From Candidatus Melainabacteria bacterium (GTDB taxonomy: Bacteria > Cyanobacteriota > Vampirovibrionia > Vampirovibrionales > Vampirovibrionaceae): a DNA stretch of 64,000 nucleotides. A program made the position numbers and the translations under genes. Each line of letters starts with the position of its first letter. Position 1 is the stretch's first letter. The DNA lies in NCBI GenBank assembly GCA_050247195.1, contig JBFWUP010000004.1:64537-128536 (forward strand), given 5' to 3'. Shown one piece after another: positions 27,116 to 60,016 of the stretch. The notes beneath the pieces are model-generated. The model saw nothing but the letters and a program-made list of their open reading frames with translations. It searched no databases and had not been told where the DNA came from.

Positions 27116-27142
27116 AGACCGGTCCATAGGCCGGTCTTTTTG
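27116..27142 (+). terminator. Intrinsic terminator after dnaK
   Basis: The sequence agaccgg-tccatagg-ccggtct is followed by TTTTT. Confidence 0.5.
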
Positions 27143-27147
27143 CCTGC

Positions 27148-27288
27148 AAAAAAAATGCCCGCCGGTGGCAGGCAAAGTCTTGAGTAGAGTAAGTAGTAGA
27201 GTTAGAGTGTGTAGAAAAAATTGGAGTTGAGGTTTGTGTGGTATCCGCATAAAAACAGTCTTTTGGGTTTTTGTGCTAGTTTGTAACG
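27148..27288 (-). ncRNA. Putative small RNA module R1 (promoter-like motif, G-poor roughly 90-nt transcript, intrinsic terminator)
   Basis: It is the reverse complement of R2, matching over about 140 bp with one or two mismatches. It contains the ctagcacaaaaaccc…tgtttttatgcggata motif and a gcccgcc-acc-ggcgggc hairpin with a T-run. Confidence 0.3.
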
Positions 27289-27346
27289 TCATGTGTTTTC
27301 TATTTTCAGAATTATTTTCTGTTTTTAACAAATTTCTGCTGAATTC

Positions 27347-28183
27347 TTGAGCCCTCCGACCCTTTCCGGCACAATGGCAGAGCAGGCCAGTGAATACGGA
27401 GAGCCCCGACAGATGCCCCACAACGCCATGGAAACCGCCTATGCCGCGCCAGAGATAGCCTTTGGCCCTTGCGGCGAGCCGTGCGATTCCCCATGTGACT
27501 CTCCCTGTGAGGGCGGTGGGGAGGCCGAAGGCCGCCAGGGCTGGCTGCAGAAACTCCTCTGTACGGGTTTCAACAACGCCATTGATCTCTGCTTTGACGA
27601 CGTGTACGCCGAACCCAAAACCATCCTGATGGTGGGCGGCTGCCGCCAGCGAACCTTTGCCCAGCGCCTCGCCCTGATGCTGCCCGGCGCCGAGATTGCC
27701 ATGGTGGATCCCAGTGAGGAAGAGGCTGTGCGCGCCAAACAGGAAATCTGCTGCCGTTTTGAGTTTTTTGTGGCCCCCATGGACCGGCTGCCCTTTGAGG
27801 ACGGCCAGTTTGACCTGGTACTGGCCCATAATCTGGCCGAACTGCTCCCGCCGCAAACCTGGGAAAGCGGCCTGAAAGAGGTGTTGCGCGTGGCCGGCAA
27901 AAACGTGCTGCTCAGCCATCATCGCGGGGGACTGACCCGGGGGATGGAAAGCCTGCTGGGCCTGTGGCCCGGCGCCCCCAGCCGTCCGGTTCAGGCCGCC
28001 CTGAAAGCCGGCGGAATAACGCTGCCGCAGACTCCGGCCCCCAACCCCGCCGATGTGAGGGCGCAACTGCGCCAACTGGCCCCGCAATACGATTTCACCA
28101 CGGAACTCACCCCCTTTCCCTGGCACTTATATATGGGGGTTCACCGGCAGATTCTGGCCGAACACACAGCCCGAACCGCCTGA
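27347..28183 (+). CDS. Class I SAM-dependent methyltransferase with an N-terminal CxxxCxxxCxxxC cysteine cluster
   Basis: It has a Methyltransf_11-like core (ILMVGGC…DLVLAHNL) and an N-terminal GPCGEPCDSPCDSPCEGGGE segment. Inverted copies of the R module flank it. Confidence 0.65.
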   Translation: MSPPTLSGTMAEQASEYGEPRQMPHNAMETAYAAPEIAFGPCGEPCDSPCDSPCEGGGEAEGRQGWLQKLLCTGFNNAIDLCFDDVYAEPKTILMVGGCRQRTFAQRLALMLPGAEIAMVDPSEEEAVRAKQEICCRFEFFVAPMDRLPFEDGQFDLVLAHNLAELLPPQTWESGLKEVLRVAGKNVLLSHHRGGLTRGMESLLGLWPGAPSRPVQAALKAGGITLPQTPAPNPADVRAQLRQLAPQYDFTTELTPFPWHLYMGVHRQILAEHTARTA

Positions 28184-28239
28184 TTACCATCAATTTCAGC
28201 ATTTTCGGGGTAAAAAACCGCCCAAAACGCTTTAAATAG

Positions 28240-28391
28240 CGTTACAAACTAGCACAAAAACCCAAAAGCCTGTTTTTATGCGGATACCACACAAACCTCA
28301 ACTCCAATTTTTTTCTACACACTCTAACTCTACTACTTACTCTACTCAAGACTTTGCCCGCCACCGGCGGGCATTTTTTTTGGCCGTGAGC
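28240..28391 (+). ncRNA. Putative small RNA module R2
   Basis: It has the same promoter-like motif, a G-poor region (ccacacaaacctcaactccaatttttttctacacactctaactctactacttactctactcaag), a perfect gcccgcc-acc-ggcgggc hairpin and a T8 run. Confidence 0.3.
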
Positions 28392-28451
28392 CATCGTGGC
28401 AAGAAAGCCCCAAGAACAGCACTGCAAGTGGCCTTTATTTTGTTAATTTAC

Positions 28452-28568
28452 GGTTACAAACTAGCACAAAATTCAAAAATGGGGGTTTTATGCCCACAGA
28501 CAACACACTCTACTACTTACTCTACTCAAGACTTTGCCCGCCACCGGCGGGTTTTTTATTGGGCGCGG
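28452..28568 (+). ncRNA. Putative small RNA module R3 (diverged, shorter copy of R2)
   Basis: It contains ttacaaactagcacaaaa…ggttttatgcc…acactctactacttactctactcaagactttgcccgccaccggcgggtttttt. Confidence 0.3.
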
Positions 28569-35893: not shown

Positions 35894-37108
35894 TCAGGCC
35901 GCCACACTGGGGTCAATAGCCCGATCCAGATAGATTCTGGCCTTGCTGGCCATTTCCGAGGCGTCAATGGTGCCGTCGCCATTCACATCACCACCGGAAT
36001 TCTGAGTGTAGGCCGCACCATCCGCCTGGGTATAAAACGCCACTGTGGGATTGGAGGCAACATCATCCAAATAGGCCGGGGCAAACACCACCGAGTAAGT
36101 GGCCGCCAGGGAGTTAATTTTGCCTTTGGCGCCGTTGTTTTCGAAGTATTTCTCCACAAAGGGCAGCTGGCTGATCGGATCCATCGTTGACAGCGCCTCG
36201 GTCGTGGTCCCTGAACTCTCTGCCGAAGAATCCATGAACTGAATCAGACCGGTGGCGCCGCTGTCCGGGTTAGACACGTTATAAATAAATCCGGCGGATT
36301 CAAAACCCATCACGGCAAGTATAAAATCGGGATCGCCACCGAGACGGGTGGCCATGGCCTGCACTTCATTGATGAAGGTTTTCACCTGCTGGTGAATTTC
36401 CTCATCGCTGCCCAGTTGTTTTTCGGCCGGCATCCGGCTGTTGGCCTCCTTAAAGCCGTTAAAAATCCAGTCTTCCCAATGCTCGGCGGTCAGCCTGCCG
36501 TCAAACTGGTGGGCATCGCCACCGGTTGCAGTCACGTCCGGCGCAGCTAACTGATCATCTGTGCCGTCATCCTGGGCGCTGTCGGGCTTATCATTTGAGG
36601 TAGATTCATCTTTCGGGATCTGAGCCGAAAGCGCGAGAATCTGATCCAGAATGCCGCCGCCACTGCCACCACCGGCCAGCGCAGACATCCCGCCGGCAGC
36701 GGAAGGCACCCCGCCACCACTCAGCATGTTGATGGCGCCCATCAGACTGCCAATCCCGGCCGAAATCTGCTGGCTCATCTCATACAAAGCTGCTGTCGGG
36801 TCCGTCGGCATACCGGGCATCAGCGGGGGAGACGCAAACATGCCCAGCAGATCCTGAGCGACAAACAGATCCCCGGCCGGCGCTGCCGAACCGAACGCTG
36901 ACCACTCAGCCGGCAGGGATGCCTGCGCCTGCTGTACGTTCAGCATTGCCTGAACCGCCTGCGGGCACGCACCAGATTGTGGGCAACCATTGATCATGCG
37001 TCTGAACGTCACTCCATCCAGAATCCACTGACACAGCAGCGATTCAACTGACTCCAACTCCGTTGCGGTGCGCGCCCGGGGCACGCGACTGTACTCCAAC
37101 TTTCCCAT
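35894..37108 (-). CDS. Hypothetical protein with Gly-rich region, SLT-like (…ATGLIQFM…) segment and a C-terminal dockerin/EF-hand-like GDVNGDGTIDASE motif
   Basis: The call rests on motif reading only. No signal peptide was recognised. Confidence 0.35.
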   Translation of the reverse strand: MGKLEYSRVPRARTATELESVESLLCQWILDGVTFRRMINGCPQSGACPQAVQAMLNVQQAQASLPAEWSAFGSAAPAGDLFVAQDLLGMFASPPLMPGMPTDPTAALYEMSQQISAGIGSLMGAINMLSGGGVPSAAGGMSALAGGGSGGGILDQILALSAQIPKDESTSNDKPDSAQDDGTDDQLAAPDVTATGGDAHQFDGRLTAEHWEDWIFNGFKEANSRMPAEKQLGSDEEIHQQVKTFINEVQAMATRLGGDPDFILAVMGFESAGFIYNVSNPDSGATGLIQFMDSSAESSGTTTEALSTMDPISQLPFVEKYFENNGAKGKINSLAATYSVVFAPAYLDDVASNPTVAFYTQADGAAYTQNSGGDVNGDGTIDASEMASKARIYLDRAIDPSVAA

Positions 37109-37248
37109 TCCGTTACAGTAATAAAAACAGCCGCGCTACCGGAATTGCCCGACCGGGGTTCAGGGCTGTCCATTCTGTTACATGTCGCCTTCCAGATGCC
37201 CTTCCTCTATACTGACGGCAAGCCCGCCAAGCCACACCGGAGCGCCTT

Positions 37249-41543: not shown

Positions 41544-41828
41544 ATGGACGTTAGCAACCCGCAGTTTGAAACCTACCGCAGCCGGTTTGAGGCGCTGGCA
41601 GACCTGGTGCCCGTGGAGCCGGGACGCCGCCCCGAAGTCAGTTCAGCGCGACACTTTCTCTGCCTTTACGGTGACAACGGCCTGAGCGCCGCCGAGGAAT
41701 TCGCCCTGCTGGATATTCTGGACACCTATTTTCACAAGGGTTTGAAGCGGATGGACGTGGAAACGTCCTACTGGCAGGACATTATTCTCTACGTGCCCGA
41801 TGATACGAAAGCGCTGCCCCAAAGCTAA
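41544..41828 (+). CDS. Hypothetical protein
   Basis: This is a 94-aa ORF with no recognised motif. Confidence 0.3.
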   Translation: MDVSNPQFETYRSRFEALADLVPVEPGRRPEVSSARHFLCLYGDNGLSAAEEFALLDILDTYFHKGLKRMDVETSYWQDIILYVPDDTKALPQS

Positions 41829-41830
41829 TA

Positions 41831-41871
41831 CCCCTCACCCCCCAACCCCCTCTCCCCAAGTGGCGAGGGGG
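41831..41871. repeat. REP-like repeat copy (cccctcaccccccaaccccctctccccaagtggcgaggggg)
   Basis: It has the same orientation and near-identical sequence to the copies at 43586 and 59543. Confidence 0.65.
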
Positions 41872-41879
41872 AAAGCCGG

Positions 41880-42487: not shown

Positions 42488-42604
42488 TGATGGTTGGCGG
42501 CTGCCCTTCCCAATCCCTTATGCTATGGTTACCCATTGTACCGTGCCGGCAGCACGATGCCATGCAACCGGAACGGGGCCGTCTCATTGCAAAGGAATTT
42601 TCCC

Positions 42605-43576
42605 ATGTCCAACACCGTGACCGCCTGTACCGGCGCACCCGCTGCACAAGACCTGATGGACCGGCTGCGGTCTGTGTACCATCTGCCGTTCACGGAACTG
42701 ATCTACCGCGCGCAGACCCTCCACCGCGAGCATCACCCGGCCAATACCGTACAGTTCTGTACGCTGGCCAACGTGAAATCCGGCAACTGCCCGGAGGACT
42801 GCACCTACTGCCCGCAGAGCGCCCGGTACAACACCGGCATCGAGACCTGGGATCTGCCTACCGTGGCGGATATCCGCGCCCAGGCCCGCGAGGCCAGAGC
42901 GAACGGTTCGACACGCTTCTGTATGGGCGCCGCATGGCGCACGCCCCCCAAGGCCCGTTTTGGCGAGGTGCTGGACCTGGTGCGCACCGTGGTGGACGAG
43001 GGCATGGAGGCCTGCGTGACGCTGGGGATGATTGATGACGCGCAGGCCGTGGCGCTGAAAGAGGCCGGCCTGACGGCTTACAACCACAACATTGATACGG
43101 CGCCGAGTTATTACGGCGAGATTATTACCACACGCACCATGCAGGACCGCCTGGATACCCTGAAGGCAGTTTCAGACGCCAATCTGCAGGTCTGCTGCGG
43201 GGGCATTCTGGGTATGGGCGAGACGGTGGAACACCGCCTCGAGATGATCGCCACGCTGTGCAGCCTGGAAACCCCGCCGGAATCCGTGCCGATTAACTGC
43301 CTGGTGCCCGTTGAAGGCACCCCGCTGGCCGATGCGCCGCCGGTGGACCCCATTGAACTGGTGCGCACCATCGCCGTTACGCGGATTTTTCTGCCGCAGG
43401 CGCGGGTGCGGCTTTCCGCCGGGCGGCTGAGTATGAACGACGAGACGCAGGCGCTGTGCTTTCTGGCCGGGGCCAACAGCATATTCACCGGCGAGAAGCT
43501 GCTGACCACTGAAAACCCGGGAAGCACGGCGGATCACGACCTGCTGGCGAAGCTGGGGATGATGGTGGAAGGGTAA
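42605..43576 (+). CDS. bioB: Biotin synthase
   Basis: It has a radical-SAM CPEDCTYCPQS motif and BioB-typical flanking sequence. An internal Met was chosen as the start. Confidence 0.9.
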   Translation: MSNTVTACTGAPAAQDLMDRLRSVYHLPFTELIYRAQTLHREHHPANTVQFCTLANVKSGNCPEDCTYCPQSARYNTGIETWDLPTVADIRAQAREARANGSTRFCMGAAWRTPPKARFGEVLDLVRTVVDEGMEACVTLGMIDDAQAVALKEAGLTAYNHNIDTAPSYYGEIITTRTMQDRLDTLKAVSDANLQVCCGGILGMGETVEHRLEMIATLCSLETPPESVPINCLVPVEGTPLADAPPVDPIELVRTIAVTRIFLPQARVRLSAGRLSMNDETQALCFLAGANSIFTGEKLLTTENPGSTADHDLLAKLGMMVEG

Positions 43577-43585
43577 GTAAACAAA

Positions 43586-43625
43586 CCCCTCTCCCCCAAC
43601 CCCCTCTCCCCAAGGGGCGAGGGGG
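43586..43625. repeat. REP-like repeat copy
   Basis: The copy reads cccctctcccccaaccccctctccccaaggggcgaggggg. Confidence 0.65.
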
Positions 43626-43668
43626 CTTTCAGGTCATCTTTGTAAACTAATATTAACCGCCGGACGCA

Positions 43669-43710
43669 TCAAAAACCAAATGATTGTTTTTATGCGGTTG
43701 TAATCATTTT
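43669..43710 (+). promoter_or_regulatory. Promoter-like motif copy (…caaaaacc-N-ttgtttttatgcgg…) upstream of paralog 1
   Basis: It shares the AAAAACC / TTGTTTTTAT core with seven other copies in the window. Confidence 0.4.
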
Positions 43711-43801
43711 TTTGTGTTTTCTTCGATATTGGGATGGATGGAAAAGACTGCGGTCTCTTTTTGGGCCGCCACAGGTTGGGATAACGATAGGGGATTTGGA
43801 A

Positions 43802-44878
43802 ATGGGAATTCTTCAGAATCTGAAACTGGGCCGTGATCTGATGCAGGCTGCCAAGGCCTTCTCCGGTGAAAAGGGCACTGCCGCCCGCTGGACCGGCGAT
43901 CTGCTCACCGGCGCCGAGGGTCAGGAGACGCTGACGGCCATTCGTGGCTTTGTCGGTCATATCGATCGCAAACTAGGCAGCCAGTGGGCCAGTGAACTGC
44001 GCCTGGGCAGTAACAATGCCCCCACCAGACTGAGCAATTTTCTGCGCAGCAACGGCGTCGATGTGGATTCGATCATCGCCAGCCACAGTTCGGCGCTGAC
44101 ACAAACGCGGTCTGAAAATAAAGCCTTCCGGGAAGCCATATCATCGCTCCGTAAGCCCGACGGCAGCATCAACCGCGAGGCGCTTTCACCGCAATACCGC
44201 AAAATGCTGGAGGCACAGGAAAGCAAACTCAGCGCTGTGCGCGAGCGACTGGCCAACAAAGGCGCCCAGGTCCCTCAGGGCTCAGCCAGCCATGGCCTGA
44301 CCAATACGCAGGCTCCTGGTGGTTCGGTTCATATTGGGGGCACGCCCAAAGCCAATGCGACAGCCGGTACACAAACGGCCAGTAAAGCGACAATAAAACC
44401 CGGAATTGAGACCCGCGCATTTGGCGGTGCTCCGATTAATCCAGCGACCAAAGCAACGGCAACGCCACACCCACAGGCCATCGCGGTGGACCCTGCAGGC
44501 GTAGCTACGCTACCCAGCACAACCTCTGGTGCCACTTCCGGTGAGAAGAAATCTTGGTGGCAGCGGCTGACAGGCGGTAGCGACAGCAGCAACCCTGCAC
44601 CAGTCCGGCCACTGACAACACAGGAACAGGCGCTGGCGGATGCAAAGCTGAAAGCGAACAAAAATGGTGAAGCACTAGAGTTGGCAACGAGATATCGCCA
44701 ACAGCAAGAATCAGCCGTCCGGCTGGGTGTCCAGATCAACCGACAGGGTGTGGGCAAACCGGATACATTCCGGCATAACCTGATGACTTCAATTCAGGAA
44801 AGACTGGCGGTGCGGGCTGCACGAAAAAACGGTCAATTTAAACTGCCCACACCACAAGAACTTGGCTTGGGCGCATAG
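43802..44878 (+). CDS. Low-complexity protein, member 1 of the tandem paralog array (starts MGIL…)
   Basis: Its N-terminus MGILQNLKLG resembles that of paralog 2. The centre is Ala/Thr/Gly/Pro-rich and the promoter motif lies upstream. Confidence 0.45.
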   Translation: MGILQNLKLGRDLMQAAKAFSGEKGTAARWTGDLLTGAEGQETLTAIRGFVGHIDRKLGSQWASELRLGSNNAPTRLSNFLRSNGVDVDSIIASHSSALTQTRSENKAFREAISSLRKPDGSINREALSPQYRKMLEAQESKLSAVRERLANKGAQVPQGSASHGLTNTQAPGGSVHIGGTPKANATAGTQTASKATIKPGIETRAFGGAPINPATKATATPHPQAIAVDPAGVATLPSTTSGATSGEKKSWWQRLTGGSDSSNPAPVRPLTTQEQALADAKLKANKNGEALELATRYRQQQESAVRLGVQINRQGVGKPDTFRHNLMTSIQERLAVRAARKNGQFKLPTPQELGLGA

Positions 44879-45004
44879 TGGCTTAAAACGCAAACCTGAC
44901 CGACTGGGCCGGAGCAATCCGGCCCTTTTACCATCAGTGCTAAATTGCCTATTCACGGCACTTTCAACCGATACCAATGTGTAAAATTACAGAAACAATG
45001 CGGC

Positions 45005-45070
45005 AAACCGCCCAAAACGCCTAGCACAAAAACCCACAACATTGTTTTTATACATACAGATAGGGACTAA
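45005..45070 (+). promoter_or_regulatory. Promoter-like motif copy (aaccgcccaaaacgc-ctagcacaaaaaccc-N8-ttgtttttatacatacagataggga)
   Basis: The module is conserved, and the RBS region caggggacaagggcaacc is conserved downstream. Confidence 0.45.
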
Positions 45071-45130
45071 TCCACACTGAACGGATCATCAAGGCATTAG
45101 GGAATTCAGGGGACAAGGGCAACCACAGAC

Positions 45131-45856
45131 ATGGGCATTCTGATTTCAAGAATTATTGGCAGTCTGAAGACCACGGGTCGCAACGTGGACGGCTGGAAAC
45201 CCGCACTCAGCGAACTGAAAGGCGGCACGTCCTTTGCCAGTGACATCAAAACGATGTTCACCCCGGGCAGAGCCGACAACCTGAGAAACATTTACAGGAG
45301 TTATGCCCAGGGCAACAACAGACTGCTGGCCGCCGTGGCCACCGTGCGCGATGCCGAAGGCAGCTTTACCGGGGTACGCAATGCACTGCTGAACGCCACC
45401 GGCGCACTGCAGGGCCAGGCGATGAAACAACCCAAAGCCGCACGCATGCTGGGCCTCGCCGCACTCGGCGTGGGCGGGGCAGGGGCGCTCTGGTGGCTCA
45501 ACAGCAAGGATCACACCGGCAGTTCATCCATTTACCCGCCGGGCGTCACACCAGGGGGCGTACCCGGTGGCGGATATCCCGGTATGCCGGGTTACCCGGG
45601 CGGTGGTGGTTACCCCGCCATGCCGGGCTACCCACAGCCATATCCTTTTCCGGGGCAAACCCCCATGCTGCCGGGCGGCGGCTATTACGCCCAGCCGGGT
45701 TACATGCCGCCCCCCACGCCACCGCTGGCATCAGGGCTGCCTCCGGTCAATGATTCACCGTTTCCGATTGATCCGGGACACGCCAACCCGCCGTCATCCA
45801 TTTACGTTTCACCGTACGACGACGAAGGCTACTTCAACTTCGGAACCACCGCCTGA
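45131..45856 (+). CDS. Gly/Pro/Tyr-rich protein, paralog 2 (N-terminal helical domain, Gly/Ala hydrophobic segment, GYPG-repeat tail)
   Basis: It begins MGILISRIIGSLK…, carries LGLAALGVGGAGALWWL, and ends …GYPGMPGYPGGGGYPAMPGYPQPYPFPGQ…. Confidence 0.55.
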   Translation: MGILISRIIGSLKTTGRNVDGWKPALSELKGGTSFASDIKTMFTPGRADNLRNIYRSYAQGNNRLLAAVATVRDAEGSFTGVRNALLNATGALQGQAMKQPKAARMLGLAALGVGGAGALWWLNSKDHTGSSSIYPPGVTPGGVPGGGYPGMPGYPGGGGYPAMPGYPQPYPFPGQTPMLPGGGYYAQPGYMPPPTPPLASGLPPVNDSPFPIDPGHANPPSSIYVSPYDDEGYFNFGTTA

Positions 45857-46037
45857 AAACGCATTTCACCAACCAATTCATCTCACTCCAAATAGTCCCA
45901 ATATCATCCCAACCAACCGGTTGACGTCCCATGACGGCAGCCGGCTTTTTATTGCCGTAAAACCTCTCAGAAAGCGGGTTTACAGGACACAACAAAAAGT
46001 AAAGATTGGGTAACATGCCGGCAAAACCGACCCATCG

Positions 46038-46086
46038 CCTAGCATCAAAGTCCTCAGAAATGTTTTTATATGTACAGATAGGGACA
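46038..46086 (+). promoter_or_regulatory. Promoter-like motif copy
   Basis: The copy reads cctagcatcaaag…aatgtttttatatgtacagataggga. Confidence 0.4.
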
Positions 46087-46118
46087 GTCAGAAACATCAA
46101 TAAAAGACAGGGCACGGT

Positions 46119-46871
46119 TTGCTCCGGCAAACCCAAGGAACAGGGGACAGGGTCATTAGCATTCTCTCCACAATCAGTGACGTTGGCATGCACCTGAAGC
46201 TGGGTAAAAGCAGCTGGAAGGCATCGCGCATCATCAAGAAAGGCCTGAACAATGGCAAGGCCATTAATGATTTGCAGAAGGCCGCGCTGAAGAGCAGCAA
46301 GCCCCATTTTAACAACGCCTGGCTGAACGCCGAAGGCGACCTGAAACTCGCGCAGAGACTACTGAACCGCAACCTGCTGAAACCGACGCAGGGTCAGGCA
46401 CAACGCAAACATCTTTTGAATGCGCTGACAAACGCCTGGGAAGCCAGCGGCAAGGATCTTGAAAAAGGCATCCGCGAAGGCCTGCCGTTCTGGAACAGCC
46501 TCACGCTGGTCAAAAGCGGCGAGGCGTCCCGCGTCCTGAGTCAGATTTCACCCACAAAACTGGCGCTGGGTGCGCTGGCAGCCGGCGGGGCCGGCCTGGC
46601 CTACCTGAAGTGGGGACAGGACGTGCAGGCGCTGAACCTGGGTTATCCCGGTCAGATTCCACCCAGCCAGTGGTCACCGTTTTATCCGGCGCCGGGCAGC
46701 ACCGGCTACCCCGGAAACAATCCGGGCGCTTACCCCGGCTATCCGGGTCTCACGCCCGGCGGGCAAACCAACAATTTTCCGGGCGCAGACCCTTCGCTGA
46801 GCGGTGGCGGCGCCTATAACCCGGACGGCACCTTCCGGCTGAACGCCCTGAACAACGGCATTCTCAGCTAA
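46119..46871 (+). CDS. Gly/Pro/Tyr-rich protein, paralog 3
   Basis: It aligns with paralog 2 (ISILSTISDVG…, LALGALAAGGAGLAYL, …GYPGNNPGAYPGYPGLTPGG…). The aligned start position is an ATT at 46155; the ORF ATG at 46119 adds a 12-aa extension. Confidence 0.5.
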   Translation: MLRQTQGTGDRVISILSTISDVGMHLKLGKSSWKASRIIKKGLNNGKAINDLQKAALKSSKPHFNNAWLNAEGDLKLAQRLLNRNLLKPTQGQAQRKHLLNALTNAWEASGKDLEKGIREGLPFWNSLTLVKSGEASRVLSQISPTKLALGALAAGGAGLAYLKWGQDVQALNLGYPGQIPPSQWSPFYPAPGSTGYPGNNPGAYPGYPGLTPGGQTNNFPGADPSLSGGGAYNPDGTFRLNALNNGILS

Positions 46872-46883
46872 AAAAGCTATACG

Positions 46884-46932
46884 GCTAGCACAAAAAACCC
46901 CTTATTTGTTTTTATATAAACGTATAGGGATT
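46884..46932 (+). promoter_or_regulatory. Promoter-like motif copy
   Basis: The copy reads ggctagcacaaaaaacccc-ttatttgtttttatataaacgtataggga. Confidence 0.45.
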
Positions 46933-46951
46933 ATGGGAACAGGGACCAACG

Positions 46952-47464
46952 ATGTCAACCACATCCTCAGGATTTGAAGCGTTTCTGAAACTGGGCGGCC
47001 AATGGCTTAAAGGCTCAGGCAAAAAGGGCGCCGCCCGCAAAGCTGGCGCGCTGTTTTCTGTTGCGCTACCCACCCTGTTGGCGGCCCGAGGGGTTTATAA
47101 AGCCTACGCCAAAAACGTGGCCCGAACGGCCGTTAAAACCACCGCCAGCCAAGCCACGCATGGCGTGTGGCGCTCCGCTGCCGGACTGGCCGTGGGCGCC
47201 GTGGTTGGTGGCCTGGTTCTTGAAAAAGGCATTGGCATGCTGGCCAACCGCGGTGGCGGTGGCGCAACCGGTTTTGACGCAATGGCTCCGGGCGGCTACG
47301 ACCCGGCCATGATGGGCGCCGGTCTGGATCCATACGCGGCGATGGCAGGGTATCCCGGCGGCGGTTCCGCAATGGGTTCCGAATTCGGCCAGGCCATACC
47401 GGCCTCGGGCGGCAGCACCCTGGATGACGCCTGGCGCGCTTACAACAGCCTGGGCGTGGGCTAG
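46952..47464 (+). CDS. Gly/Ala/Met/Pro-rich protein, paralog 4
   Basis: It carries AAGLAVGAVVGGLVL and a tail …GGYDPAMMGAGLDPYAAMAGYPGGGSAMG…. The conserved leader acagggaccaacgATG lies upstream. Confidence 0.5.
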   Translation: MSTTSSGFEAFLKLGGQWLKGSGKKGAARKAGALFSVALPTLLAARGVYKAYAKNVARTAVKTTASQATHGVWRSAAGLAVGAVVGGLVLEKGIGMLANRGGGGATGFDAMAPGGYDPAMMGAGLDPYAAMAGYPGGGSAMGSEFGQAIPASGGSTLDDAWRAYNSLGVG

Positions 47465-47501
47465 GCAATAAAGAAGGCGCCGGCCATGCCGACGCCTTCT
47501 G

Positions 47502-49493: not shown

Positions 49494-49755
49494 GAGAGCG
49501 GCCTCGGGGTCCGTTCCGTGGAACGGGGCGTGATGGTGTCGGTTCTCGTATCTGCTTTTCCGTCACCCGGCCTTTTCGACCTGATCAGAAGGTCCGGGTA
49601 ATATATATACTACAGATATAAAAACAATTTGTCATCCCCCCGTGCGCAAAATCAAACCCTATGTAACAAACATGTTACGTCTGGCGCGCTCACCCAGACC
49701 TTCAGCAAAACCGCAGCGCCGTTACCAGGCGTCCGGCTGCGCGCAAAGGCCCCGT

Positions 49756-59503: not shown

Positions 59504-59539
59504 ATTCCGGCCCGTCAGGTCAGGACAGAATTTCCAACG

Positions 59540-59929
59540 TTACCCCTCACCCCCCAGCCCCCTCTCCCCAAGGGGCGAGGGGGAGCAAGTCAATCTTTCG
59601 ATTGTCGTTTTCAGGTAACTCAAAAAACATTCCGGCGAGTTCAGAACGACGGCATTGGCATACCGGATAACAACATACCCCATCGCCTCCAAAATTGCCT
59701 GTCGTTCCCGATCATACCCTTCCACATCGGGCAGATTGTGAACTGAGCCGTCCAACTCCAGAACCAGCCTTAGCTCGGGGCAATAAAAATCCACCACAAA
59801 GTACTCAACCGGCTTCTGGCGGTAAAATTTGTAACCCATCACCTGGCGATTGCGAATCAACAGCCAGCAGGCCTGTTCAGCGGGGGTTTCCCGGTGACGC
59901 AGTAGTCGGGCTTTCTGGGTTGCCTCCAT
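59540..59929 (-). CDS. DUF559 (Vsr-like, restriction-endonuclease-fold) protein
   Basis: The sequence …GYKFYRQKPVEYFVVDFYCPELRLVLELDGSVH…ERQAILEAMGYVVIRY… is a typical DUF559 core. The C-terminal 17 aa derive from the REP-like repeat. Confidence 0.65.
   Translation of the reverse strand: MEATQKARLLRHRETPAEQACWLLIRNRQVMGYKFYRQKPVEYFVVDFYCPELRLVLELDGSVHNLPDVEGYDRERQAILEAMGYVVIRYANAVVLNSPECFLSYLKTTIERLTCSPSPLGERGLGGEG
59543..59583. repeat. REP-like repeat copy (cccctcaccccccagccccctctccccaaggggcgaggggg)
   Basis: The copy is in direct orientation and encodes the last residues of the DUF559 ORF on the opposite strand. Confidence 0.65.
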
Positions 59930-59951: not shown

Positions 59952-60016
59952 CTCCCCCTCGCCCCTTGGGGAGAGGGGGCTGGGGGGTGAGGGGTCAAAG
60001 GTTGGGGGGTGAGGGG
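59952..60016. repeat. REP-like repeat copy, inverted orientation, with tandem ggggggtgagggg units
   Basis: The copy reads ctccccctcgccccttggggagagggggctggggggtgaggggtcaaaggttggggggtgagggg. Confidence 0.65.

Follow-up and report, generated by a model that had tools for sequence, protein, structure and literature searches.

A candidate family of sibling small RNA genes with an HLR1-like promoter repeat in the Vampirovibrionales

Small regulatory RNAs (sRNAs) encoded by sibling genes are a familiar theme in bacteria, and in kind the locus described here belongs to that theme. It lies in a 64-kb stretch of contig JBFWUP010000004.1 from Candidatus Melainabacteria bacterium, hereafter the window, where three copies of a unit of about 110 to 150 bp stand around and beside the gene of a Cys-rich methyltransferase. 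Among described systems, the LhrC1-5 sRNAs of Listeria monocytogenes depend on the two-component response regulator LisR for their transcription and use single-stranded CU-rich regions to pair with the AG-rich Shine-Dalgarno (SD) regions of envelope-protein mRNAs (PMC5880928). Like LhrC1-5, the window units are multi-copy and partly tandem putative small RNA genes, each with a predicted promoter and terminator of its own. There is no sequence or structural homology between them, and the CU motifs of LhrC are found in the loops of a folded RNA, whereas the whole 40 to 70-nt body of the window RNAs is predicted to be unstructured and is nearly free of G, and its conserved motif is UCUACUCA(G/A)A instead of the UCCC of LhrC. 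The OmrA and OmrB sRNAs of enterobacteria are encoded by adjacent homologous genes under OmpR-type control, with conserved ends, a variable middle and a copy number that varies between species (PMC4211561). The window units have a similar adjacent sibling arrangement, likewise conserved at the ends, variable in the middle and differing in copy number between species, and the direct repeat upstream of them resembles OmpR-family sites, but they are not homologous to Omr. The Omr RNAs are Hfq-dependent with a 5'-terminal seed, whereas the invariant block of the window RNAs is 3'-proximal, and an inverted pair flanking a gene is a feature of the window and not of Omr.

Within the cyanobacterial phylum, the PsrR1 (SyR1) promoter of Synechocystis carries, across its -35 to -10 region, an HLR1, the site bound by the OmpR-family regulator RpaB, and is repressed by RpaB (PMC6525291). 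The window units share with PsrR1 their phylum and an HLR1-like promoter element composed of two (G/T)TTACA(T/A)(T/A) octamers 2 nt apart. Unlike in PsrR1, the repeat is positioned upstream, with a predicted centre at about -47, which would be an activated-promoter position, and the RNAs are without sequence similarity. The physiological signal must also differ from that of PsrR1, because the host is non-photosynthetic. Repeated promoter-sRNA-terminator cassettes are likewise found in the NsiR1 tandem array of Nostoc, which is HetR-dependent, and in the Yfr2 family of marine cyanobacteria. The promoters, sequences and structures of those families differ from the ones described here, which have no Rfam match to cyanobacterial families. 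Literature searches and Rfam returned no described regulatory RNA for the Vampirovibrionia or Melainabacteria.

It is very probable that the units are independently transcribed functional RNA genes of a family new to the literature. Our full reading is that they encode trans-acting sibling sRNAs that would be controlled by a response regulator and act by base-pairing, and we assign it a rough probability of 0.6. Unit A is the minus-strand copy (27147-27297), and units B (28231-28382) and C (28443-28562) are the plus-strand copies. Their parts and immediate surroundings are as follows, with each sRNA drawn from a predicted transcription start site (TSS).

27116-27137, plus strand: dnaK terminator hairpin, separate from the unit A terminator
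27148-27242, minus strand: predicted unit A sRNA of about 95 nt, with body 27175-27242, core UCUACUCAAGA 27178-27188, stem 27156-27174 and U-run 27148-27155
27249-27279, minus strand: putative core promoter of unit A, an exact-register motif of CTAGCA (27274-27279), a 16-nt spacer and TGTTTTTAT (27249-27257)
27280-27297, minus strand: HLR1-like 8-2-8 direct repeat of unit A, AACACATG-ac-GTTACAAA, score 12/16, proximal half perfect and distal half degenerate
27413-28183, plus strand: class I S-adenosylmethionine (SAM)-dependent methyltransferase gene, Cys-rich N-terminus GPCGEPCDSPCDSPCEGG (Pfam Methyltransf_25/11)
28231-28248, plus strand: HLR1-like repeat of unit B, TTTAAATA-gc-GTTACAAA, score 15/16, the best HLR1 match of the window
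28249-28279, plus strand: putative core promoter of unit B, CTAGCA, 16 nt, TGTTTTTAT
28286-28381, plus strand: predicted unit B sRNA of about 96 nt, body with a single G, with core UCUACUCAAGA 28341-28351, stem 28355-28373 and U-run 28374-28381
28443-28460, plus strand: HLR1-like repeat of unit C, TTAATTTA-cg-GTTACAAA, score 13/16
28461-28491, plus strand: putative core promoter of unit C, CTAGCA, 16 nt, with GGGTTTTAT as a variant -10 region
28498-28561, plus strand: predicted short unit C sRNA of about 64 nt, 5' half of the body deleted, with core UCUACUCAAGA 28521-28531 and stem 28536-28552

The three copies reported in the initial annotation of this stretch are real. A repeat search returned inverted arms at 27147-27220/28309-28382 and 27215-27288/28240-28313, 74 nt each and 99% complementary, and direct repeats that link units B and C; for a 32-mer of the body and a 19-mer of the 5' block the window count is exactly three in each case, compared with an expectation of 0.00. 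Each unit runs about 9 nt further upstream than the positions given earlier. An alignment of units A and B shows only two substitutions and a T-run that is one T longer in one of them, and one of the substitutions turns a C-G pair of the terminator stem into a U-G wobble, while unit C is without 32 nt from the middle of the body. The G-poor tract, which had been put at roughly 85 nt, exists but is 72 nt long (28284-28355, at most one G), with a 71-nt mirror at 27174-27244 (at most one C); these are the two longest such tracts in the 64 kb on either strand, the next longest being 57 nt. The terminators had also been recognized correctly, with a hairpin at 27156-27174(-), 28355-28373(+) and 28536-28552(+) and a T-run after each on the G-poor strand. 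Bracketing of a Cys-rich methyltransferase gene by units A and B holds as well, although this gene probably starts at 27413, preceded by the SD sequence GGAGAG, and not at 27347; there is an in-frame ATG upstream at 27374.

The units are conserved in related loci. Further loci are labeled with L-numbers, and L002 is a JGI contig encoding a methyltransferase 81% identical to that of the window. Its layout is that of the window: the end of dnaK, a terminator, a minus-strand unit, the methyltransferase gene, a plus-strand unit and the start of a third unit. Between the two loci the unit is 93.6-93.7% identical and the core plus terminator 98.4%, compared with 78.7% for the methyltransferase coding sequence, 58% for its third codon positions and 53-67% for the adjacent spacers. 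Because the identity of the unit far exceeds that of third codon positions and spacers, the unit is under strong purifying selection.

The wider search that had been proposed for other genomes came up empty with exact scans and succeeded with synteny and nhmmer profiles, which recovered conserved units and not passive elements. The exact 19-mer GTTACAAACTAGCACAAAA has 0 matches across 185,579 species genomes, and CTACTTACTCTACTCAAGAC in metagenomes gave a single chance match in eukaryote-like low-complexity DNA (L004). Since these scans of public collections were near-empty, the exact unit sequence is confined to a narrow clade, and homologues were therefore reached through the methyltransferase, the syntenic anchor of the sRNA gene, and then with nhmmer profiles. 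At least eight further lineages, with methyltransferases 39-47% identical, have one or two diverged copies (nhmmer E-values 1e-7 to 1e-37). Diverged units are found directly downstream of the methyltransferase gene in L010/L005 (methyltransferase 46% identical), L012 (a tandem pair), L013, L017, L021, L015 (cut), L024 and L027/L028, and in L018 the unit is 5.5 kb away. A broadened nhmmer profile found zero units in L006-L009, L011, L014, L016, L019, L020, L022, L023 and L025. All members have in common the promoter module, a G-poor CU/A-rich tract with CUAC-type repeats, the invariant element UCUACUCA(G/A)A beside the terminator, and the intrinsic terminator itself. The family is a concrete, order-wide conserved sRNA candidate with clear gene boundaries.

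The anchoring methyltransferase is identical in the window to a protein of the 'Candidatus Melainabacteria' metagenome-assembled genome (MAG) GCA_050182425.1, and its homologues are found only in the Vampirovibrionales, including Vampirovibrio chlorellavorus. Domain searches returned only generic class I SAM matches and did not narrow its substrate or function. Two motifs are invariant in an alignment of the family (27413-27530(+) in the window), the N-terminal, Cys/Pro-rich GPCG-PCD-PCD-PCE and CCRF, and they suggest a metal or redox site. The gene directly upstream of the methyltransferase in nearly all Vampirovibrionales loci, here called gene X, encodes a polytopic membrane protein of about 540 aa (L017:1584-3212 and L013:3513-5138, with orthologues in L010-L021). 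Gene X is absent from the 64-kb window and has zero Pfam or NCBIfam matches; its promoter has a conserved extended -10, TGcTATGAT, and its 5' untranslated region (UTR) a conserved purine box, GG(A)UAGAG. Genes for an M23 peptidase and a mannose-6-phosphate-isomerase-type cupin are found near gene X in the relatives.

Passive repeated DNA of the REP (repetitive extragenic palindromic) or MITE (miniature inverted-repeat transposable element) type, spread by duplication and functionless, could produce a cluster of three copies in 1.5 kb with two in inverted orientation, and the window does contain a separate family of G-rich palindromic repeats. Such an origin is nevertheless very improbable for the units, of which there are just three in 64 kb, at one locus, and a single syntenic copy in distant genomes; terminal inverted repeats are absent, the identity is far above neutral, and the conservation is motif-specific. 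The earlier view of the units as sRNA-like genes, as opposed to passive REP elements, is instead favored by selection, order-wide synteny, the lack of a conservable open reading frame (ORF), the shared promoter and terminator compensation.

The inverted arrangement had further suggested that the methyltransferase segment could be flipped. Units A and B do form 142-bp inverted repeats with arms 99% identical and 950 bp apart. They share lineage-specific substitutions (spacer caaaaaccc, gcgga) that have no counterpart in unit C or in the L002 lineage; the L002 copies A' and B' are homogenized in the same way, and unit C of the window keeps the L002 state. Units A and B thus recombine or undergo gene conversion, because the derived substitutions are common to both arms, and this recombination counts in favor of an invertible switch. 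Short-read contigs break within the arms (L001), though this is expected of any repeat longer than the assembler k-mer. Against an invertible-segment switch, to which we give hardly any credence, the orientation is the same in the two diverged lineages (window and L002), no recombinase domain is found among the genes within 10 kb on either side, and most lineages are without an inverted copy. Because the sRNA promoters face outward and the upstream region of the methyltransferase gene lies inside the segment, a flip would not rewire expression.

A role in cis is a second way to account for the location of the units. Every unit has its terminator at its end, followed by a convergent gene or by another unit, with no co-directional gene downstream. 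The units could mainly insulate convergent genes from each other or terminate them in both directions (dnaK/unit A and unit C/M23 peptidase), or be the 3' UTR of the methyltransferase gene, with the promoter motifs incidental. The unit C terminator adjoins the stop codon (28556) of the convergent M23 peptidase gene, and in most relatives the unit is directly 3' of the methyltransferase gene, as this would predict. We regard it as improbable all the same. The terminator of dnaK itself is 10 nt from that of unit A, so that unit A is dispensable for dnaK termination; the U-run is on the sRNA strand only; the L018 unit is remote from the methyltransferase gene; and tandem copies, as in L012 and in units B and C of the window, are needless for termination. 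A cis role would also leave the 60-nt promoter module with its fixed spacing, the G-poor body and the invariant core unexplained.

The terminator stems vary between members and yet pair, as CCCGCC/GGCGGG, as CCCUCCG/CGGAGGG in L021 and as AACCGUCG/CGACGGUU in L018, with double (compensatory) changes in three of the six consensus terminator pairs. In the window RNAs the terminator alone is predicted to fold, the body being unable to do so because G is depleted. Most distant members have a short 5' hairpin whose stem sequences differ between members, and the window RNA is nearly G-free because its lineage lost that hairpin. A body of 70 nt with a single G that cannot fold is an extreme case and would be a clean model for partner-finding by unstructured CU-rich RNAs. 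In L021 the core CUCUACUCAGA is duplicated, and in L024 several repeats have the same U-to-G change (CUCGAC, CCGAC, CUCGAC).

A small peptide was considered and rejected, as there is no conserved ORF. The sole ATG, within TTTTATGC in the -10 region, opens three different frames across units A, B and C and is missing from L012b and L013, and a start codon is impossible in the tract because it is G-less. Known RNA families did not account for the units either. Rfam 15 over the whole window detected two tRNAs only and none of its families at the units, among them those of cyanobacterial sRNAs, RsaE/RoxS and AgvB; on the unit region, with E-values up to 10, the best matches were terminator-driven, at 14-24 bits against thresholds of 41-70; five related loci gave zero Rfam matches; and ARAGORN recognized nothing at the units.

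The promoter-like motif seen earlier belongs to a two-part element, CTARCA-N16-(T/G)G(T/G)TTTTAT, with six in-register occurrences in the window compared with 0.19 expected. The sequence TGTTTTTAT occurs nine times in the window against 0.18 expected, an enrichment of about 50-fold. Three of the six core promoters belong to the sRNA units, and the other three precede consecutive protein genes at 45-47 kb with the correct distance and orientation. They are listed here with one further site that has the direct repeat.

45021-45051, plus strand: core promoter CTAGCACAAAAACCCA...TGTTTTTAT without the direct repeat, about 80 nt upstream of ORF 45131-45856
46039-46069, plus strand: core promoter without the repeat, upstream of the ORF ending at 46871
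46885-46915, plus strand: core promoter without the repeat, upstream of ORF 46952-47464
49618-49667, minus strand: HLR1-like repeat GTTACATA-gg-GTTTGATT (49650-49667, 14/16) at +23 spacing to TGTTTTTAT (49618-49626)

An identical 15 nt, AACCGCCCAAAACGC, is found upstream of the 45021 promoter and upstream of the unit B repeat, and relative to the 45021 promoter the 18-nt repeat of unit B sits exactly between AACCGCCCAAAACGC and CTAGCAC. The promoter is modular, because unit B amounts to a 45021-type promoter with an inserted 18-nt repeat. At the sRNA genes an 8-2-8 direct repeat with consensus TTTACATT-tc-TTCACAAA is directly upstream of the core; its position in unit A recurs in units B and C and in every relative. 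We scored it out of 16 against the HLR1 consensus (G/T)TTACA(T/A)(T/A)-N2-(G/T)TTACA(T/A)(T/A), which is cyanobacterial. All 15 units score 11-15, compared with 3-8 for the mRNA promoters with the same core. A score of at least 11 is reached at just 0.16% of window positions, and unit B of the window is the best of 128,000. A scan of 586,000 positions over all loci found the repeat combined with the extended -10 at +22/+23 only at the sRNA genes and, beyond them, at a single promoter, 49667(-), which is the only other window promoter to pair an HLR1-like repeat with TGTTTTTAT at that spacing. The promoter anatomy consequently splits into a lineage-specific core, CTARCA-N16-TGTTTTTAT, that also serves protein genes, and an HLR1-like repeat specific to the sRNAs.

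We read TG-T-TTTTAT as a probable extended -10, by analogy with the TGcTATGAT of the gene X promoter. Transcription would then start about 7 nt downstream of the extended -10-like TGTTTTTAT, with the CTARCA box as part of the core promoter, and with a TSS 7 nt past TTTTAT the centre of the repeat would be at about -47. RpaB follows a positional rule by which an HLR1 centred from -66 to -45 activates and one centred from -38 to +23 represses (PMC6525291). The 8-2-8 repeat would accordingly be a site of the activating class for an RpaB/OmpR-type regulator, and because of this position the sRNAs would be made in response to a two-component signal. Taken alone, control by a regulator of the RpaB/OmpR type has about an even chance of being correct.

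Several other promoter readings were set aside. Inspection by eye spoke against sigma-54, for which CTAGCAC is similar to the -24 box TGGCAC without a TTGC following at N5. Sigma-28 and sigma-B/F-type promoters were also rejected by eye, and a simple sigma-70 scan detected nothing at the units.

The 49667(-) promoter leads into a leader of about 120 nt with a hairpin and then a 63-aa ORF, 49493-49302(-), MAFNPFDDWMQRW..., with zero family matches; this gene may be co-regulated with the sRNAs. The protein genes with the core promoter are part of a consecutive set in 43640-47470(+) (about 43802-44878, 45131-45856, 46119-46871 and 46952-47464) that encodes low-complexity proteins without a Pfam match. 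In three of the four proteins (241, 250 and 170 aa) a single hydrophobic segment is accompanied by a region rich in Gly/Pro(/Tyr), and three of the four genes have the CTAGCA-N16-TGTTTTTAT core promoter and a common leader motif, (A)UAGGGA. The promoter of the fourth gene (43685) contains TTGTTTTTATGCGG, a 16-nt spacer that recurs without change in the L021 sRNA promoter, and, at 43639-43656, an HLR1-like repeat in inverted orientation. A perfect 16/16 repeat of the HLR1 type, TTTACAAA-cc-TTTACAAA, is found in a distant Vampirovibrionales MAG (L022:15890-15907(+)) and suggests that the site of the regulator is in wider use across the order.

In the mechanism that we propose, each unit would be a self-contained small non-coding RNA gene, the RNAs being about 95, 96 and 64 nt long. 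The G-depleted body would remain single-stranded up to the terminator and display the CUAC-type repeats and UCUACUCA(G/A)A, and this CU-rich single strand would pair in trans with mRNAs, at purine-rich stretches near the SD. As siblings the three paralogues would be partly redundant, and unit C, without the 5' half, might reach a narrower range of targets. Considered separately, base-pairing as the mode of action is about as probable as its opposite. The CCUC/CUCC elements (28296-28305) for which an anti-SD function had been suggested do not withstand comparison. They are in the least conserved part of the unit, being CCUCGACACC in L002, deleted in unit C and absent in the distant members.

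A number of observations weigh against the proposed mechanism. The -10 hexamer TTTTAT has no A at -11, where one is canonical, and 19 nt separate it from the CTARCA box, so that the sigma factor is ambiguous; the TSS and promoter activity are deduced from motifs. Likeness to HLR1 does not separate RpaB from other OmpR-family regulators, and tblastn with an E. coli OmpR query found no OmpR-family regulator in the examined DNA. An RNAduplex scan over the 64 kb gave the real core a minimum of -22.7 kcal/mol, compared with -24.9 to -33.6 for shuffled cores, and its top matches in the window are a G-rich repeat. A perfect complement of the core is found only antisense to the sRNA genes themselves and at two isolated sites. 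When each sRNA was scanned against its own locus, the lone and weak target lead was the purine box in the 5' UTR of gene X, but its rank is first only in L013 and fourth in the closely related L017, and the pairing is lost in L018; another match in L018 (5033) was rejected because it is inside a coding gene. Finally, the invariant core adjoins the terminator. In many sRNAs the terminator-adjacent position is one of protein binding rather than target pairing.

These observations bear on a further explanation, in which the RNA is a decoy or sponge: its G-less, C-rich unstructured tract with three to five CUAC/YAC repeats would titrate an RNA-binding protein, for which an RRM-type Rbp, a KH or S1 protein, or Rho are candidates. 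The preferred ligands of Rho are C-rich, G-poor, unstructured RNAs with YC dimers. Across lineages the composition of the body and the repeat motif are kept and its exact sequence is not. The common U-to-G change of the L024 repeats is expected if one partner reads each repeat, and the duplicated core of L021, the position of the invariant core beside the terminator, multi-copy genes that fit a stoichiometric titrator, and the lack of a detectable mRNA target in the scans all point in the same direction. However, a pairing seed would just as typically appear as a 10-nt invariant block in drifting sequence, the U-to-G change could equally track a GUAG-to-GUCG change in an RNA partner, and no candidate protein has been identified. 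The target scans spanned about 300 kb of DNA and gave no significant target, and because about 2% of any genome was searchable, the absence of targets is weak evidence. We therefore view titration of a protein as an unlikely but serious competitor to trans-acting, base-pairing sRNAs.

Homologues of RpaB and NblS, with a role unknown, have been reported in Melainabacteria of orders other than the Vampirovibrionales (PMC3787301, PMC4040986). What the two do without photosynthesis has been open since 2013 (PMC3787301), and the sRNA promoters are ready test substrates for that question. We tentatively suggest that in these non-photosynthetic relatives of cyanobacteria the NblS-RpaB system has the sRNA family as an output that it activates directly. 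If this is true, the HLR1/RpaB circuit, known as a light/redox regulator of photosynthesis genes, would predate photosynthesis, and in its ancestral form this circuit would have driven a CU-rich riboregulator along with a handful of small genes, that of the 63-aa ORF among them, probably for envelope or stress control.

In the V. chlorellavorus clade, the slot 3' of the methyltransferase gene is occupied by the same core promoter, after which comes an ORF-less stretch of about 440-470 nt (L016:8815-9290, L011:8801-, L014:5641-, L018:8780-9228) with zero Rfam matches. Its 5' part, GGUGGCUGAGUGGUU, is reminiscent of the D-arm of a class II tRNA, and at its 3' end stand a conserved hairpin, the CU tract UUCUCUCUCUCCAAUCAACAG and a terminator whose changes are compensatory. 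In L011, L014 and L016, but not in L018, it includes a purine tract, GAAGUAGAUAAGUAAUAGUAGGUAGUAGGAGGAAG, that is a near-complement of the CUAC repeats of the short sRNAs. This stretch may be a second, longer non-coding RNA family or a sponge.

Two other repeats in the window deserve mention. At 36990-37129(-) an intergenic TGTTTTTAT (37121) without a CTAGCA box is followed by two GUUGGAGU repeats around a GC-rich hairpin; the GUUGGAGU repeats are complementary to ACUCCAAC, which is in the non-conserved part of sRNAs A and B. The G/C-rich palindromic repeats, CCCCTCGCCCCTTGGGGAGAGGGGG(T/C)TGGGGG...GAGGGGT, are intergenic, at about 41815-41875, 43575-43630, 59530-59590 and 59956-60005. One copy directly follows the stop codon of ORF 42494-43576, and the family looks like a REP or terminator-type element.

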